From Cuniculiplasma divulgatum (GTDB taxonomy: Archaea; Thermoplasmatota; Thermoplasmata; Thermoplasmatales; Thermoplasmataceae): a stretch of DNA of 32,000 bases. The position numbers were made by a program, and so were the translations under genes. Shown here one piece after another: positions 5,522 through 18,390 of the stretch. The notes under the pieces are model-generated. The model was given only the letters and a program-made list of their open reading frames with translations. It did no database searches and was not told the DNA's origin. Every line of letters begins with the position of its first letter. Position 1 is the first letter of the stretch. Location of the stretch: NCBI RefSeq assembly GCF_900083515.1, contig NZ_LT671858.1, positions 1,410,001 through 1,442,000 on the forward strand, in the 5' to 3' direction.

Positions 5522-7105
5522 ATGAAGATTACTGCTGATATTCTAAAATCAATTAGGTCAAAATTAACAGTTAAGTCTATTATTATTTTATCAGTTATTA
5601 GCATTCTAATATTTCCAGCCATTCTTATAGAGAACGCATCAATTCCAACAAGCGACAGCCACCTTTACTTTCTCAGCAATGGATATGATATTCATACAGT
5701 GAGTGTTAATCATAACTCAAAAAATGCTAGCAATATTGGTGCAATGTATCAGAGTACTTACTCTCTAATAAACAATAAGCTTGAACCCGTTTCTAATACA
5801 AGTGTAAGATTAAATGTTTCTGTAGTAGACTCAAATTTATTGGATCATTTTTTCCTTCAACTTAATATATATTTTAATGTAATTACCAAAAAGAACGGAA
5901 GTTTTACATTAAATAATACTGATTTATTATTCCTACTACCAGTTGATTATAATAGAACTCAGAATTCTATTAGAAGCTATCACATAGAAAATTACACAGT
6001 ACTGGAGGGTGAAAACAGATTAGTTACCAACCAAAAGGATGATAAATTTGGATTTAATAGTTTTGATGTAGTTGTTAATAATAGAACAGGAGAGCGTGGA
6101 GTTATAAATATGGCTTTTTTGCCCTTTTATAATTTGGGCTATTATGGCATCGCTCCCATCTTCCTCATGAGTGGAAACTCAAGTGGAAGCTATAATCTTT
6201 CATATCATCTCTATAATCCTCAAGATCAAAATTCTGTTGGTCCACTCGTTTATTTGGGTAACTATTCATTTAATAAGATTTACACAATAAATTCAAATGA
6301 GGGCAGAATTCTTTCCATGAATGAAGCGTTTAACGTAACTTTTTTTGTAAATGGAATTGCTCTTGGTACCGTTTACCATAATACCGTTTTGCCAATTTCT
6401 ATTACCTCTGGTATTTCTATTTTAGGATTACTAGGAAATACTGGCGCAGAAATTATGTTACTTGTCACTGTTTTTATGGTATTAACATTGTTTGTGCCCA
6501 TGTTTAATCTTCCTGTTTACATGTATTATCTATCATTGCCAAGAAAGAGATGGTATACAATAACAAATGAATTTATCTCTTCTATCTTGACCATGTCCAT
6601 CTTTGAGGGTTTTGCTTTTACTGCCACATACCTGATTTCAGAATTAATGTTACACTATTCACTATCTATTCTTGCATTTATTTATATTTACCTTTTCAGT
6701 GTGGCTGCATTTACTGTTTTTTCCTCTCTATATCTTCTGATTGGCGTTTTTTTCATTGGTAAAACAATGCCCCGCATTTCATTAACAATATTTTTGATTT
6801 TAGGATATCCTTTAATAGATTCCTTATCACAATCCATACTCGAAATTCAGGCAATTTTCTCAGATAATGTCCTATTCAAACCTCTGCTTGATAACATAAG
6901 GACATATAACCTAATAAGTGGCATATTACCCGTTCTAAATGTAGAGGAACTCAACAGTTATTTTCTGAGAAGTCCGGTTAGCGGAGTTATAATGCTAAAC
7001 CATCTTTCAATATTCGATCTTTCCCCTTTAATATTCCTCTCTTCTATTATAGGTATTTCTTTGACTCTGTTCTACCTTTCAATAAAAAGATATTACAAAT
7101 ATTGA
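5522..7105 (+). CDS. Hypothetical polytopic membrane protein with a large sequon-rich extracellular domain
   Basis: 527 aa. It has an N-terminal TM helix, then a ~270 aa hydrophilic domain with at least 12 N-x-S/T sequons, then about 6 C-terminal TM helices. The topology resembles ABC-2-type permeases, but there is no adjacent ATPase. Confidence 0.5.
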   Translation: MKITADILKSIRSKLTVKSIIILSVISILIFPAILIENASIPTSDSHLYFLSNGYDIHTVSVNHNSKNASNIGAMYQSTYSLINNKLEPVSNTSVRLNVSVVDSNLLDHFFLQLNIYFNVITKKNGSFTLNNTDLLFLLPVDYNRTQNSIRSYHIENYTVLEGENRLVTNQKDDKFGFNSFDVVVNNRTGERGVINMAFLPFYNLGYYGIAPIFLMSGNSSGSYNLSYHLYNPQDQNSVGPLVYLGNYSFNKIYTINSNEGRILSMNEAFNVTFFVNGIALGTVYHNTVLPISITSGISILGLLGNTGAEIMLLVTVFMVLTLFVPMFNLPVYMYYLSLPRKRWYTITNEFISSILTMSIFEGFAFTATYLISELMLHYSLSILAFIYIYLFSVAAFTVFSSLYLLIGVFFIGKTMPRISLTIFLILGYPLIDSLSQSILEIQAIFSDNVLFKPLLDNIRTYNLISGILPVLNVEELNSYFLRSPVSGVIMLNHLSIFDLSPLIFLSSIIGISLTLFYLSIKRYYKY

Positions 7106-13586: not shown

Positions 13587-14333
13587 TTATTTGAGGATAG
13601 CACTCTGCTTTTCTCTTCTCAAAGTGCCTCTCTGCATGTAGATTATTACAAAGGATAGAACAGAAAAAATGTCAAGATAAACAAAGTAAATATTGTCTAA
13701 TGGGGAGAATAGGGAAGTAAGAATCCTGAAACTACCATATCCTATGTAAATAAGAAATATGAATCTGATTAGATATCCACTGGTTATGGAAATTGTGAAG
13801 TTGGAAAATTTCATTTTTAATATTCCTGCTCCAAGGGCAAAAAGAACCTTTCCATAAGGGATAAATGTTGAAATAAAAATTGAAAATGTTCCATGTGTCG
13901 CTATCCAGTCATCTGCCTTGTTGATGTCTTTTTCCCTAATCTTGATCTTTGATAGCGCTTTCAGTAGAAGTTCCCTTCCTGCAAATCTCCCACTGAGATA
14001 TTCAATCAGGGAGACAAAGAGCATTGCCAGAACAGAAACAAAAAGCGTAGCATAAACATTGAAAAGGCCAACAAATGCAAGATATCCATAGAATGGTACA
14101 AGAATATCATCTGGTAGTGGACCAAAGGCTATTATAATAAACATACCGAGATAACCAAGTTTATAGATAGGCTCAAATGCACCGAAACTCACATTCTTTA
14201 AGTTTATATCAATGCTGATATAATGGAAATATCCATTTGCAATATCCAGAGAGCTAAGAATTATGAAAACAATTAGCAAAGTTTCAGCATAGAGGTAATA
14301 CCTGTTCAGATTTGATCTCAGAAACCTGTACAA
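13587..14333 (-). CDS. DedA/VTT (SNARE-associated) family membrane protein
   Basis: 248 aa polytopic protein. GPLPDDILVPFYGYLAFVG and SGRFAGRELL resemble the DedA core motifs. Confidence 0.5.
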   Translation of the reverse strand: MYRFLRSNLNRYYLYAETLLIVFIILSSLDIANGYFHYISIDINLKNVSFGAFEPIYKLGYLGMFIIIAFGPLPDDILVPFYGYLAFVGLFNVYATLFVSVLAMLFVSLIEYLSGRFAGRELLLKALSKIKIREKDINKADDWIATHGTFSIFISTFIPYGKVLFALGAGILKMKFSNFTISITSGYLIRFIFLIYIGYGSFRILTSLFSPLDNIYFVYLDIFSVLSFVIIYMQRGTLRREKQSAILK

Positions 14334-14457
14334 ATTGAGGAATGTTTCACTGACCGTATTTACCCACGCAACGGATTATATCATGTTTATATTTAAAGAA
14401 AATAGATGATATATGTGTCTCAAATGTAATTTAGTTATCCCAATTCCCTCCTCCTTT

Positions 14458-15189
14458 TCAGCTGGAAATAGGCTGATCCGGACTGTAGTGAATTTTACCC
14501 CTTTCTTTATACATGAACTTGTATGAAAGAGCCCCCAGTATTCCTCCCAGAACTGGTGCTATCCAGTATATCCACTGATAATACTGGCCCTTTAACAATA
14601 TCCCTGAAAGTACTGCAGGTCCAAATGATCTTGCGGGGTTGATAGAACCTCCACTGATGGTTGCCAGCATGAATATCATGATTGAAACATATATTCCAAT
14701 TACAATTGCTATAATTGCCGTATTATTAGTTCTGGATGTTACTCCCATTATGGTCCACAGGAAAAAGAATGTCATTATGAATTCCCCTGCAAAGGCGACC
14801 CATGGTCCTCTGATACCCGGTATTGTTGCTCCAAACTGAACGCTGTTTGCAACGTTATAGCCGAATAATAATCCGACTGTTGCAGATGCCATTACAGCCC
14901 CTATCAACTGAGCAATTATATACTGAAATACATATTTTCCTGGAAAGCGTCCAGCAAAGAACATGGCTATGGTGACTGCAGGATTTACATGGCCTCCTGA
15001 AATATTTGCAACTGCCATAATACCTACTGAAATCCCTAATCCAAATGTGATTGCAAGATAGAACAGCGTAGATGGATTTAGTGTTTGATTGAAAGCCGCA
15101 ATGAAAGCCACGACACTACCTGGCCCAAAAAGCACGAAGATGTATGTACCAACCAGTTCAGCTAACGATTTCCTTATGATGTCTGCCAT
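14458..15189 (-). CDS. Aquaporin / MIP-family channel
   Basis: 243 aa with two NPA boxes (GGHVNPAVT and GGSINPARS) and six hydrophobic helices. Confidence 0.9.
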   Translation of the reverse strand: MADIIRKSLAELVGTYIFVLFGPGSVVAFIAAFNQTLNPSTLFYLAITFGLGISVGIMAVANISGGHVNPAVTIAMFFAGRFPGKYVFQYIIAQLIGAVMASATVGLLFGYNVANSVQFGATIPGIRGPWVAFAGEFIMTFFFLWTIMGVTSRTNNTAIIAIVIGIYVSIMIFMLATISGGSINPARSFGPAVLSGILLKGQYYQWIYWIAPVLGGILGALSYKFMYKERGKIHYSPDQPISS

Positions 15190-15390
15190 GTTTAGGAACT
15201 CATATATAAGTAATATAATAATACATTTAATTTAATTTTTGATTAATATACTTAGAGTGAAAGGACTCTATTCTGAGAGTAGTTTTATGGAAATCACAGT
15301 CTTTTTTCCAAGACGTTTATTAGTATAAGATAAAGTTAAAGCTGAATGCAGGCTCAACACTAATCGCTATATATAAATTCGCATTGCGCA

Positions 15391-15645
15391 ATGAAATATC
15401 ACATTGCAGAATCGAAGGACCTTATTCTTATGGATTGCCGGCGGTTTTTCATGTGGCATGTTGGGGATATAGAACGCAGGTACACACTGAATAAGGAAAG
15501 GTTGCCCGATGACATGATAGAAGATATGAGGCATTCCTATGCTAAGGCGTTAAAGTTTATCAAGACTGAAAAAAACGACATGAAAGAAGAAGTTTCCGTC
15601 AGTCTTCTGGCAAACATAGCGAGTGATATGAAAAGGATGGCCTAA
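15391..15645 (+). CDS. Hypothetical small protein (orphan)
   Basis: 84 aa ORF with no recognisable motifs. Its start codon is embedded in the perfect 12-nt palindrome CATTGCGCAATG (15382-15393), and TATATATAAA lies just upstream. Confidence 0.4.
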   Translation: MKYHIAESKDLILMDCRRFFMWHVGDIERRYTLNKERLPDDMIEDMRHSYAKALKFIKTEKNDMKEEVSVSLLANIASDMKRMA

Positions 15646-15701
15646 TGTTATTCGAGATGTTTTATAAGGTCAAGCTGTAAGACAAAGAGAAGAATGAACT
15701 C

Positions 15702-15896
15702 GTGGTTCTCGAGATGAACCACCTTCAGGAAAGGCTGAAAAAGATATTCAGTGATAAGAAAGCGGATATCCTTAATAACGGCAATAAGCATAAGACTATA
15801 CCTGAGGGGAAACTGGAGACGTATCTCAATAAGAGATGGAAGCTCGTGCAGAGATGTCCCAGTGGAGACGAGGCAGTTATAAAGCTCCCGTCTTAA
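15702..15896 (+). CDS. Hypothetical small protein (orphan)
   Basis: 64 aa from the GTG at 15702, or 60 aa from the ATG at 15714. It is basic and helical-looking, and I cannot name a family. Confidence 0.35.
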   Translation: MVLEMNHLQERLKKIFSDKKADILNNGNKHKTIPEGKLETYLNKRWKLVQRCPSGDEAVIKLPS

Positions 15897-15940
15897 ATAT
15901 GAATTGATATGTGTTCAGTAGTAATTAGAACCTTTAACCA

Positions 15941-16438
15941 CTACAACTCTTCTATTTTCTTTTTTACGGCATTTAAAGTTATATAACTAATGACTTTAGT
16001 GCTCTTTAATACTTTTGTATCACGAGAGTAAAAAATTTTAGAATCACTGTCTTCGCAGAAGGCCGCAAGTGCCATCTTATCTCCTGTTCCTATGAATCCG
16101 TCAAGTTCATAAATTTTCTGGTAATGGGCAAAAAAATTTTTTGAAACATCCTCCATCCTTATAATTGATATAAAACCCTTGCTAATGAAGCCCTGTACTT
16201 CTTCAATACGCTTCTGTATCCTTTTATCATCCAGTTGGACATGGTTCCCATCTCTCTCTACTAAGAGTCTTTTGAAAACTTCTCCAAGGGTATAAACAAA
16301 AATCTTTATCTTCACATCTCCTAAGTTTGAAGGGTGAAATAATTTCCTTACTCCTTCTTTTTGGTCTTTGTCAATGTTATCTAACAGAAAATAATCAATG
16401 AGTATGTTAGCATCTATAGATTTTATTTGATTCGCCAT
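15941..16438 (-). CDS. PIN-domain ribonuclease-like protein (putative toxin)
   Basis: 165 aa. Four acidic residues sit in canonical PIN contexts: D9 (SIDANILIDY), E53 (YTLGEVF), D120 (GTGDKMALAAF) and D140 (IFYSRDTKVL). It begins 15 nt downstream of the DUF4065-like gene. Confidence 0.65.
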   Translation of the reverse strand: MANQIKSIDANILIDYFLLDNIDKDQKEGVRKLFHPSNLGDVKIKIFVYTLGEVFKRLLVERDGNHVQLDDKRIQKRIEEVQGFISKGFISIIRMEDVSKNFFAHYQKIYELDGFIGTGDKMALAAFCEDSDSKIFYSRDTKVLKSTKVISYITLNAVKKKIEEL

Positions 16439-16453
16439 AATAAGCGCTGCGCT

Positions 16454-16930
16454 TCAGATTAATCTCAGATTTTTTATTTCATTGAATGTGTTTTTGACAT
16501 AATCAATCGAAGCCTTTTTCTCCATAAGTCTTTCGGATTTAATGTTAGATACTGCGTTAATAACATCCTCCTCAGAGGCATCTGGATTAGAAGTTCTTAT
16601 AGAATGTAATGTTGCTGCAATCTCCAAAAAAAAGTCGTCTTTTTCTTTGAGAGCAATAAGGATAGCAGAAATTCCTTCAGGGATCACGATTTCCCCCCTT
16701 GCCCACTCTCTTTCTCCCATTTCAAAATAGTCATGAGACAGCGCTGAAGAATAGGGTCCATAAACGTATAGGTCAAAATCATAATCCAATGGTATTCCAA
16801 GGACTCTGCCAAAATATACGAGTTTTTGTGCTTTTATGCGGTTAGATATATCCCCCTTAGTTATCTCTTTTCGGCTTAAGCCATTCCATTTTAGAAAGCC
16901 GGCTAAAGTCTTTACTTTACTCTCATCCAC
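16454..16930 (-). CDS. DUF4065/Panacea (SocA/GepA-like) domain protein (putative antitoxin)
   Basis: 158 aa with a GTG start. KAQKLVYFGRVLGIPLDYDFDLYVYGPYSSALSHDYFEM matches the KLQKLLY...W.YGP....ly core of DUF4065. Confidence 0.65.
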   Translation of the reverse strand: MDESKVKTLAGFLKWNGLSRKEITKGDISNRIKAQKLVYFGRVLGIPLDYDFDLYVYGPYSSALSHDYFEMGEREWARGEIVIPEGISAILIALKEKDDFFLEIAATLHSIRTSNPDASEEDVINAVSNIKSERLMEKKASIDYVKNTFNEIKNLRLI

Positions 16931-16987
16931 TGTCTTCCCTTAATGAGTAAATAATGGAATATAAGGTTTTCATTGGGTGCCCTTCTA

Positions 16988-17006
16988 GGTTAGTGATTAA
17001 CTAACC
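16988..17006. promoter_or_regulatory. Near-perfect 19-nt palindrome GGTTAGTGATTAACTAACC upstream of the Panacea-PIN module
   Basis: GGTTAGT and ACTAACC form 7-bp arms, with one further pair in the spacer. It lies about 60-75 nt upstream of the GTG start at 16930 and is a candidate operator. Confidence 0.3.
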
Positions 17007-17255
17007 ACTCACGCAACCATATATATTATAGTCACCTAGATGTTGCTGCTTCCTCAAGCAAAAATAAAATGAAGAGGATATACTCCTTCATTGCGTACTC
17101 GGGTAGACCTTATATGTTTCCTGAGTGGGGTTGATTCGAATAAGTGGCAATGAAATATTATTCAAATATCGGTATATCCGGGAATGACTCACATTAGTAT
17201 ATAAACTCTAATCATGAAAATGCCAATGAAAATAGAATCTAAACTGTATTGGTAA

Positions 17256-17328
17256 TGGGACCGTTGAGATTTGAACTCAAGTCACTAACACCCCAAGCTA
17301 GTAGGATACCAAGCTACCCCACGGTCCC
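17256..17328 (-). tRNA. tRNA-Pro (anticodon GGG)
   Basis: I folded the reverse complement by hand: GGGACCGTGGGGTAGCTTGGTATCCTACTAGCTTGGGGTGTTAGTGACTTGAGTTCAAATCTCAACGGTCCCA. The acceptor stem GGGACCG/CGGTCCC is perfect. The anticodon stem is CTAGC/GTTAG with loop TTGGGGT (U33, GGG, G37). The T arm is TTGAG-TTCAAAT-CTCAA. CCA is not encoded. Confidence 0.85.
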
Positions 17329-17343
17329 AAAAAAGTACATGCC

Positions 17344-17562
17344 TTATGAAAAAGGCATTATTTCGTCTATAAGTTCAATGTGCGATAGAACCATTCTTCT
17401 GCAACAGTATCTTTCAAGCCCTAGTTTGTCCATTATTGCAGAAATTTCATCTGGAGTTGGTTCTCTGTTCCTTGCCCTTATCTGGTTTAATTCAGCCTCG
17501 AACCTTCTGTAATCGGAACCTATAACTCTTCCACAGCTGAAACATCTTACAGGTATTATCAT
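17344..17562 (-). CDS. rpoN: DNA-directed RNA polymerase subunit N (Rpo10)
   Basis: 72 aa. MIIPVRCFSCG...YCCRRM is the zinc-binding signature of RpoN/RPB10. Confidence 0.95.
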   Translation of the reverse strand: MIIPVRCFSCGRVIGSDYRRFEAELNQIRARNREPTPDEISAIMDKLGLERYCCRRMVLSHIELIDEIMPFS

Positions 17563-17567
17563 TCAGA

Positions 17568-17972
17568 TCACCTGTAAGACTTCTGTCTTTTGGCTCTGGC
17601 CCCTCTTCCCATGGGCTTCTTTGGCAGTTTTCTTCTAATATCATTAACCATTATTGTTCTGTCATATTGTCTGTATATTTCCTCAACTGTGTTGTCCTTC
17701 AGGAACTTTACAATTCCTTTAGCCATAGCTGTTCTTGCAGCATCTACCTGTCCTGTTAAGCCTCCTCCACTTACTGAAATATCGACATCGATTGAACCAG
17801 ACCTTTCACCTATAAGAGCTATTGGTTCCATCAGTTTTTCTCTAAGCAGCGCCACTGGGTATAGTTCTACTGGATAGTCATTTATCCTGAATTTTCCAGT
17901 TCCACTCTTTGTATATGCCCTCGCCGTAGCTGTTTTTCTTTTTCCAGTTGTTATAACTATTTCTTCACTCAA
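17568..17972 (-). CDS. rps9: 30S ribosomal protein uS9
   Basis: 134 aa with GKRKTATARA near the N-terminus, GGGLTGQ, and the C-terminal RQKSYR. Confidence 0.95.
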   Translation of the reverse strand: MSEEIVITTGKRKTATARAYTKSGTGKFRINDYPVELYPVALLREKLMEPIALIGERSGSIDVDISVSGGGLTGQVDAARTAMAKGIVKFLKDNTVEEIYRQYDRTIMVNDIRRKLPKKPMGRGARAKRQKSYR

Positions 17973-18390
17973 TTACCTTTACCTCCTTTCCCATTATTTT
18001 TGCTACTTCTGTAAGGGTCACAAAACCGCTTACCCTGTTGTTCTGAGCCTTTTCGAATTTCTCGAATTGCTTATCCTTCAGTTCGGGTGGTACTCCATCG
18101 TATACAATGCATCTTTTCAGTGCCTCTTTTCCCTTAGCCTTATCTTTTGGAAGCATATCACCAATGGACCTCTTGAGAATAGCCTTTGGATTTCTTGGAT
18201 AATAAGGTCCCTTCCTGACACTTCCTATATCCCTTCTGCTCCTGAACTTCCCCAGTACTGCATCTCTTCCCCCCGTCACAGCTACCTTTGCTGCATTCAC
18301 TATTGTAACTGATTCTCCTTCCAGCAGCTTTTTTGCCAGAATGGTTGAAAGCCTGCCATAAACTGCGTTATCCGCATCTACGTATATCAT
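17965..18390 (-). CDS. rpl13: 50S ribosomal protein uL13
   Basis: 141 aa. VDADNAVYGRLSTILAKKLLEGESVTIVNAAKVAVTG is typical of archaeal L13. It overlaps the rps9 start by 8 nt. Confidence 0.95.
   Translation of the reverse strand: MIYVDADNAVYGRLSTILAKKLLEGESVTIVNAAKVAVTGGRDAVLGKFRSRRDIGSVRKGPYYPRNPKAILKRSIGDMLPKDKAKGKEALKRCIVYDGVPPELKDKQFEKFEKAQNNRVSGFVTLTEVAKIMGKEVKVIE

Follow-up and report, generated by a model that had tools for sequence, protein, structure and literature searches.

We analysed a stretch of 32,000 nucleotides (nt) from the chromosome of the archaeon Cuniculiplasma divulgatum (contig NZ_LT671858.1, positions 1,410,001 to 1,442,000; hereafter the window) that carries two adjacent minus-strand genes, A and B, which probably constitute a new variant of type II toxin-antitoxin system, as yet a predicted one. 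Gene A, the upstream of the two, occupies positions 16454..16930 and encodes a putative antitoxin of 158 amino acids (aa) from a GTG start, a stand-alone protein of the 'YwgA family' that resembles DarG's C-terminal domain. Gene B occupies positions 15941..16438, starts with ATG and encodes a 165-aa putative toxin, a divergent PIN-like nuclease. Between the TGA stop of A and the ATG of B is a spacer of 15 nt on the same strand (16439..16453, AGCGCAGCGCTTATT), and this close spacing in the sequence indicates that the two genes are a bicistronic unit. A preliminary description of the window, made from its sequence, had reported two minus-strand genes 15 nt apart, encoding 158 residues from GTG and 165 residues, and we found open reading frames (ORFs) at exactly these coordinates. 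In an alignment of homologues, residues F12, L13, K14, G17 and R20 of A are nearly invariant and precede any in-frame ATG, and the homologues begin at the same aligned position as the GTG; this codon is therefore the sole possible start of A. Both genes are conserved across many genomes and metagenomes, and both are real genes.

The distribution of the pair was assessed by scanning one genome per species with a profile of A and metagenomes with a profile of B. The resulting sample of loci is small (about 15), and frameshifts seen in single assemblies are possible sequencing errors. In the window and in related loci L001, L002, L006 and L026-L030, the two genes share a strand and A lies directly upstream of B. 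Three far more divergent relatives of B (L048-L052) were likewise preceded, at a distance of 4-8 nt, by an A-like gene (E=1e-24 to 1e-35); at the other loci, the A-B junction comprised no more than 14 nt between stop-to-stop reading frames. The co-occurrence that the preliminary description had proposed to survey was borne out in this small sample of about 15 loci, with A upstream in every B-containing locus examined, including 5/5 of the loci seeded with B and 3/3 of the divergent relatives. When the surrounding 6 kb on either side were compared, A and B were the only window genes common to any of 12 related loci. Pairwise distance matrices of A and B from ten loci were closely correlated (r=0.96, Mantel p=2e-4). 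As flanking genes are not shared and the two proteins diverge together, we conclude that the pair moves and diverges as a unit. The pair itself, which the preliminary description had placed in the only accessory stretch of the window, behaves as an accessory element.

No intact B was seen without A among the approximately 15 loci, and losses were found that affected B or both genes. In Thermoplasma acidophilum (L032:4494-5002; AL139299.1, ~69024-69532), A is intact, but a frameshift close to residue 60 has broken B in two: the 68-aa and 110-aa genes that follow the 'YwgA family' gene in the annotation each encode one half of a B homologue. Either the toxin has become a pseudogene next to an antitoxin-like gene that is still intact, or the frameshift is an error of sequencing. 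Another locus, L003, contains A without B, and L004 has no B and retains A only as an N-terminally truncated copy. The pair has decayed fully in Oxyplasma meridianum (L007:3749-6833; NZ_CP133772.1), where an insertion has left A in two pieces and B is frameshifted. The insertion carries ORFs of 120 and 419 aa which, by their size and arrangement, look like an IS200/IS605-type resolvase/TnpB pair. Asymmetric decay is the pattern expected if B alone were harmful and A harmless. Genes that are small, adjacent and co-directional, that move as a unit with a patchy distribution, and of which the toxin was not seen without the antitoxin, fit the pattern of a type II toxin-antitoxin system.

The structure of A was modelled with AlphaFold (pLDDT 93.8). 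In the model, the N-terminal part consists of helices at residues 3-15, 20-25 and 28-43 and a beta hairpin at 53-60 bearing the sequence QKLVYF...YGPYS, with a winged-helix-like topology, and the C-terminal part is a helical bundle. A Foldseek search of the PDB with this model returned a single meaningful match (7yk3_D/B, prob 1.00, TMq 0.56), which is the C-terminal fragment of DarG in the M. tuberculosis DarTG complex. Sequence profiles gave the same answer: A matched the NCBIfam DarG model NF048014 at E=1.7e-7, over profile positions 183-303 of 338 and thus in the C-terminal part only, and the PADLOC DarG model at E=3.6e-9. Each of five A-like proteins compared with NCBIfam matched the DarG model alone, always in its C-terminal part (E 5.4e-14 to 1.5e-3), and bacterial members, which align with A over their full length, had a stronger match than A itself. 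A profile built from 21 diverse A-like proteins, distant members included (A5), gave E=1.5e-6 against the 7yk3_B sequence, with its positions 35-152, or nearly the full length, in the match; a narrower profile of close homologues alone gave E=0.48 against the DarG fragment, and the comparison succeeded only after distant members were added. No macrodomain was matched by A in Pfam, and its 158 residues cover the C-terminal section of DarG alone. The 17 close homologues of A carry no Pfam annotation and are named 'YwgA family protein' by NCBI and JGI. DarG's C-terminal domain, which like A is helical, binds its cognate toxin DarT and suffices by itself to neutralise it in vivo (PMC7003065), and is therefore a proven toxin-sequestering domain. 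The passages of PMC13621843 that deal with its mechanism refer to binding and 'ssDNA mimicry' (mimicry of single-stranded DNA), citing Deep et al. 2023.

Protein B was less easily placed. The preliminary description anticipated that a Pfam search would return PF01850 or another model of the PIN clan, and no PIN model was matched. When 19 members of the B family were compared with Pfam, the best scores were those of PIN_12 (0.0071) and PIN_3 (0.017), all of them sub-threshold. B gave nothing meaningful in NCBIfam or PADLOC, had no DarT match in Pfam, NCBIfam or PADLOC, and profile hidden Markov models of its family returned only noise from PDB sequences. The AlphaFold model of B (pLDDT 86.9) has the order b1-a1-a2-b2-a3-a4-b3-a5-a6-b4-a7-b5, which is the PIN order of strands and helices, and shows the three-layer alpha/beta/alpha fold with a parallel sheet. 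D9 lies where b1 ends, E53 and D120 lie where a3 and a6, respectively, begin, and D140 follows b4. The top six Foldseek matches of this model in the PDB were all VapC toxins (7vwo_A, E=3.5e-5; 5ecw, 3tnd, 6a7v, 6nkl and 4chg; TMq 0.50-0.54), followed by HARP RNase P and AF1683. The PIN proteins encoded beside distant A-like genes scored 36.3, 32.8, 26.1 and 22.7 bits against PF01850 (cut-off 23.6). Comparison of the B family with these partners by hhalign gave a probability of 92.3% (E=5.7e-7), with D9, E53, D120 and D140 in register. The four acidic residues that had been singled out as those of a PIN domain are indeed conserved, and in the alignment they coincide with the D/E/D/D of PF01850-positive PINs.

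Among 10 close homologues of B, D9, E53 and D120 did not vary and D140 was nearly invariant. In 19 members with identity down to ~25%, E53, D113 and D120 were invariant and D9 nearly so, a degree of conservation that argues for B being an active enzyme; D9, E53, D113, D120 and D140 are the candidate catalytic acidic residues. B is longer than a typical VapC, as had been noted, with the extra length spread over loops and the C-terminus and not gathered in a single insert. The insert of ~35 aa that had been proposed between E53 and D120 was not found: the spacing is 67 residues, compared with 61 in Pfam-recognised PIN partners (E49 to D110 in the PIN protein of locus L009), and the model contains no extra element. 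The family is very small: at E<=1e-3 it comprises 39 representative clusters out of 1.84 billion. Comparisons at the level of modelled fold and of profile against profile support the assignment of B as a divergent PIN-like nuclease.

Genes resembling A have a wider distribution than the pair itself. They are found beside PF01850 PIN genes in Nitrososphaerota and Patescibacteria, and the two genes are co-directional in Candidatus Terraquivivens (L008) and in a Patescibacteria genome (L025). At six bacterial loci (L016, L017 and L019-L022, from Bacillota, Acidobacteriaceae and other metagenome-assembled genomes), the A-like gene follows directly after, and often overlaps, a gene encoding a phosphohydrolase of 430-490 aa with HD and HD_assoc_2 domains (PF01966 + PF19276); this arrangement is located around position 6000 of the respective locus, or ~2000 in L021. 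We take the order of HD and A-like genes to be the ywfO-ywgA arrangement of Bacillus subtilis. Two metagenome-assembled genomes of Cenarchaeum (L012:4882-6976 and L013:5770-7869) have a tandem of two A-like paralogues, both extended considerably at the N-terminus, and the gene that follows these encodes a predicted membrane protein of ~200 aa in place of a PIN protein.

With moderate confidence, we predict that A and B are a type II-like toxin-antitoxin module on the C. divulgatum chromosome. This reading is supported by gene structure, homology, fold, conserved acidic residues, linkage, co-divergence, mobility and asymmetric decay. The preliminary description had likewise read the two genes as an antitoxin-first module, of toxin-antitoxin or defence type, whose toxin is of the PIN type; that proposal is supported, although the Pfam evidence it predicted failed and other evidence has taken its place. 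In the mechanism that we envisage, A and B would be co-transcribed, antitoxin first. B would be a metal-dependent PIN ribonuclease, its acidic active site under selection, whose activity would arrest growth through RNA cleavage; by analogy with VapC, the likeliest targets would be tRNA or rRNA. A would be a free-standing version of the helical toxin-sequestering C-terminal domain of DarG, and may bind B directly and block its substrate groove or active site, much as the DarG domain does to DarT. We infer the nuclease activity and toxicity of B and its neutralisation by A, and the same applies to any autoregulation through the winged-helix-like N-terminal part of A and to the trigger that would release B. 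We also considered whether an acidic A might act as a nucleic-acid mimic toward a basic B, and set this idea aside, as isoelectric points vary widely in both families with no consistent split.

Several observations weigh against a toxin-antitoxin system. Pfam gave no family for B and no PIN model at E<=10, and the structural matches of B are moderate (TMq ~0.53), with a single match at E<=1e-3. A has no DNA-binding or VapB-type domain recognised by Pfam and autoregulation by A is therefore unsupported; palindromes upstream of the pair in other loci were likewise present at a frequency expected by chance, with unconserved sequence. There is no consistent acidic/basic charge complementarity between A and B across their families. 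In many Cuniculiplasma samples, the pair occupies a single fixed position on the chromosome. At Nitrosopumilaceae-type loci (L009, L010, L011 and L015) the A-like and PIN genes are convergent and do not form an operon, and the bacterial arrangement of HD and A-like genes is not known as a toxin-antitoxin pair.

The preliminary description identified A with DUF4065/SocA/GepA, or 'Panacea' (PF13274), which would make the pair a PanA-PanT system. We regard this identification as very improbable. The motifs quoted in its favour, KAQKLVYFGRVLG...YVYGPYSSALSHDY, are present in A and are the most conserved part of the family in our alignment, and a short motif (QKLxYF...(Y/F)GP) is indeed shared with the DUF4065 core; the claim of family membership did not stand. 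A matched no family in the whole of Pfam at E<=10, and neither A nor 10 further archaeal and bacterial A-like proteins matched the expected PF13274 at this threshold. The positive control, a PanA from Burkholderia prophage phi52237 that has been validated by experiment (PMC8832971, Table 1; L033:8355-8828), scored 65.8 bits on PF13274 (E=8.4e-18) in the same library, which is therefore sound. The NCBIfam results of this PanA were the reverse of those of the A-like proteins, with E=6.3e-30 for SocA_antitoxin (NF047745) and just 0.065 for DarG; none of the five A-like proteins tested (0/5) matched SocA_antitoxin. When profile A5 was aligned by hhalign with 11 phage DUF4065 proteins (alignment A4), a probability of 61.9% was obtained (E=7.6e-5), but the match was local, covering 48 columns that coincide exactly with the shared motif; with DarG's C-terminal domain, by contrast, the match extends over near full length. 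Aligned with a single PanA, A (A1) gave a probability of 3%. A fold search of BFVD with A returned nothing significant, neither a DUF4065 protein nor a viral relative of A. The antitoxin-first order and tight spacing would also suit a Panacea system, as they recur in predicted pairs of PanA with PIN-like proteins, and DUF4065 proteins have been described as homologues of DarG's helical C-terminal domain, at a marginal E of ~1e-3 (PMC13621843). The local match of A to DUF4065 is compatible with a distant superfamily link, and not with membership; Panacea and the YwgA/DarG-C-terminal-domain family may be distant cousins. In our reading of the profiles and the modelled fold, A is a stand-alone member of that YwgA/DarG family and not a member of PF13274, a distinction that matters more for naming than for function.

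Two further explanations concern the role of the pair. An anti-virus or abortive-infection defence module, in which A would be a sensor that holds B inactive until a viral cue appears, overlaps with the toxin-antitoxin reading and differs from it in role and trigger; we consider it unlikely. The system in which the closest characterised relative of A resides, DarTG, is a phage-defence system modelled in PADLOC, where A scores, but B has no significant match in that collection, and the other match of A there, to the candidate defence protein PDC-M19A, is weak (E=0.024, residues 30-78, the region of the QKLxYF...YGPYS motif). A sensor role is favoured for Panacea by the authors of NetFlax (PMC10440598), and the multidomain PanA antitoxins offer a parallel; nevertheless, the fold search of BFVD returned no viral relative of A. 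The pair is mobile and patchily distributed and is located beside a tRNA-Pro integration hot spot, near insertion sequence (IS) activity, yet no other defence genes were seen beside it in the window or at related loci. It is also quite improbable, in our judgment, that A and B are a non-toxic housekeeping or regulatory unit, with B as an RNA-processing or turnover nuclease and A as its adaptor, specificity or regulatory subunit; more broadly, YwgA-like proteins would then be accessory subunits of nucleic-acid or nucleotide enzymes (PIN, HD). The coupling of A-like genes to HD phosphohydrolases at the six bacterial loci and to convergent PINs in Nitrosopumilaceae, neither of them a classic toxin-antitoxin layout, would accord with such a unit. 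However, housekeeping genes keep their synteny and escape repeated pseudogenisation, whereas no flanking gene is common between the loci of this pair, B is frameshifted in both T. acidophilum and Oxyplasma, and the A of Oxyplasma is split as well. The Cuniculiplasma copy is identical across many samples and is located just downstream of a ribosomal-protein/RpoN cluster and tRNA-Pro, as might be expected of a housekeeping unit; the B family as a whole is nonetheless tiny (the 39 clusters mentioned above) and patchy within Thermoplasmata.

The toxin-antitoxin pair predicted here can be compared with several known systems. The closest characterised relative of A in sequence and fold is DarG's C-terminal domain (PDB 7yk3, NF048014, PADLOC DarG). 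Unlike DarG, A is free-standing and has no macrodomain, and hence no enzymatic type IV activity; unlike DarTG, its partner is a PIN-like nuclease and not a DarT ADP-ribosyltransferase, the antitoxin gene comes first and the host is an archaeon. PanAT (Panacea/DUF4065/SocA, PF13274) is similar in having a small helical antitoxin domain that swaps unrelated toxins, and the QKLxYF...GP motif region is common to both, but A fails the PF13274 and SocA_antitoxin models and the likeness is local only. VapBC shares with A-B a PIN-fold toxin with conserved acidic residues, encoded in an antitoxin-first bicistron that is chromosomal, mobile and patchy. Unlike VapC, B falls outside all Pfam PIN models and in a very small family; unlike VapB, which is of the AbrB, ribbon-helix-helix (RHH), PHD or helix-turn-helix (HTH) type with a disordered tail, A is a fully folded 158-aa protein similar to the DarG C-terminal domain. 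The bacterial 'YwgA family' proteins encoded beside HD phosphohydrolases belong to the same protein family as A, but their partner is an HD + HD_assoc_2 protein encoded upstream and not a PIN protein encoded downstream.

It is well known that PIN toxins can have their antitoxins swapped. Pairs of DUF4065 with PIN-like proteins have been predicted in Actinobacteria (cluster pT43/T38; PMC8832971, supplementary file 2), and the toxin-antitoxin reading thereby gains a precedent, itself a predicted one. In a literature search that was not exhaustive, we found no account, for archaea or any other organisms, of a protein of the DarG-C-terminal-domain/YwgA type that partners a PIN nuclease, and no paper on the function of YwgA. 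NetFlax makes no mention of DarG or YwgA (PMC10440598), and the Cuniculiplasma genome paper lists vapBC, mazEF and relE loci and not the A-B pair (PMC5155288). As Pfam, NCBIfam above its cut-off and, for B, PADLOC provide no recognition, current finders of toxin-antitoxin and defence systems miss such loci. If confirmed, the pair would represent a new class of antitoxin for PIN toxins, the largest toxin group in archaea, and would provide a function for the little-studied 'YwgA family'. It would also mean that the toxin-sequestering domain of DarG exists in archaea as an independent, partner-swapping module, and would link DarTG, Panacea systems and VapC-like toxins in one evolutionary network. 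The practical stakes are modest, as this would be one more toxin-antitoxin variant and not a new principle.

Judging from gene neighbourhoods, the A-like domain swaps partners, as Panacea does (PMC8832971, PMC10440598), and the bacterial pairing with HD proteins, which is conserved, might be another conflict system. A tentative extension, which we put forward as a possibility somewhat short of an even prospect, is that the YwgA/DarG-C-terminal domain is a second Panacea-like domain, a partner-switching neutraliser or sensor that operates across archaea and bacteria in a combinatorial toxin-antitoxin and defence network. In its free-standing form, the domain would guard PIN nucleases in Thermoplasmata, Nitrososphaerota and Patescibacteria, HD phosphohydrolases in bacteria such as Bacillota, and small membrane proteins in Cenarchaeum; in its macrodomain-fused form it would guard DarT, and the Cuniculiplasma pair would be one spoke of this network. 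Were this true, the HD-YwgA pairs that are widespread in bacteria would likewise be conflict systems.

The intergenic region upstream of A (16931..17254, minus strand, 324 nt) is identical in three Cuniculiplasma assemblies and, from inspection of the sequence, is presumed to be the promoter region. It includes a TATA-like TTATAT at 16959-16964, -34 from the GTG, and a purine-rich AAGGGAAG at 16934-16941, just upstream of A. A palindrome at 16988-17006 (GGTTAGT-TAATC-ACTAACC) was noted as a possible operator and a weak lead. It was rejected as operator evidence, as, by our estimate, a stretch of AT-rich DNA 160 nt long would contain about one inverted repeat of 6-7 bp by chance. A search of positions 14000-18000 with Rfam detected tRNA only, and no family in the upstream region. 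The tRNA gene, tRNA-Pro(GGG), was identified by both ARAGORN and Rfam at 17255..17329 on the minus strand; it is a flanking landmark outside the module, 324 nt upstream of A, and beyond it are the genes for RpoN, S9, L13 and L18e. Downstream of B are two small convergent ORFs, followed by genes for a MIP channel, a VTT-domain protein and an aldo-keto reductase. An identical B protein in the same context is encoded by LT719092.1, the chromosome of C. divulgatum PM4. Direct repeats of the att type, derived from tRNA-Pro and bracketing the pair, were looked for and none was found, and the base composition is not distinctive.

In a related Cuniculiplasma assembly (L044:1-2180; GCA_027316415.1, DAHVGN010000010.1), the ribosomal-protein/RpoN/tRNA-Pro context upstream of A is replaced by a 429-aa integrase-family gene (PF00589, E=1e-4), a gene for a 159-aa winged-helix-like protein, a 74-aa ORF and a gene for an AAA_14 protein. 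Identity to the window starts exactly at the 3' end of tRNA-Pro, and no tRNA was detected in L044. By its sequence, this has the look of an element integrated at tRNA-Pro, and the A-B pair lies just outside it. The tRNA-Pro position, which the integrase-family gene of L044 abuts, is an integration hot spot.

The two ORFs convergent with B, each of 64 aa (15451-15645 and 15702-15896, plus strand), were called in 4/4 Cuniculiplasma assemblies, with one of them 60 aa long in two assemblies; neither has a Pfam or NCBIfam match, and they could be another small accessory pair. In another Cuniculiplasma sample (L047:4267-5751), an insertion sequence with a DDE_Tnp_1 transposase of 494 aa is located between the small ORFs and the MIP gene. 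The stretch between B and MIP is a variable spot. Separately from this locus, a DUF4065/PanA-like gene of Cylindrospermopsis phage Cr-LKS4 (L036:359-817; OQ625504.1, 88205-88663) was found with an annotated CRISPR array on either side, an unusual setting for a gene that resembles an antitoxin.

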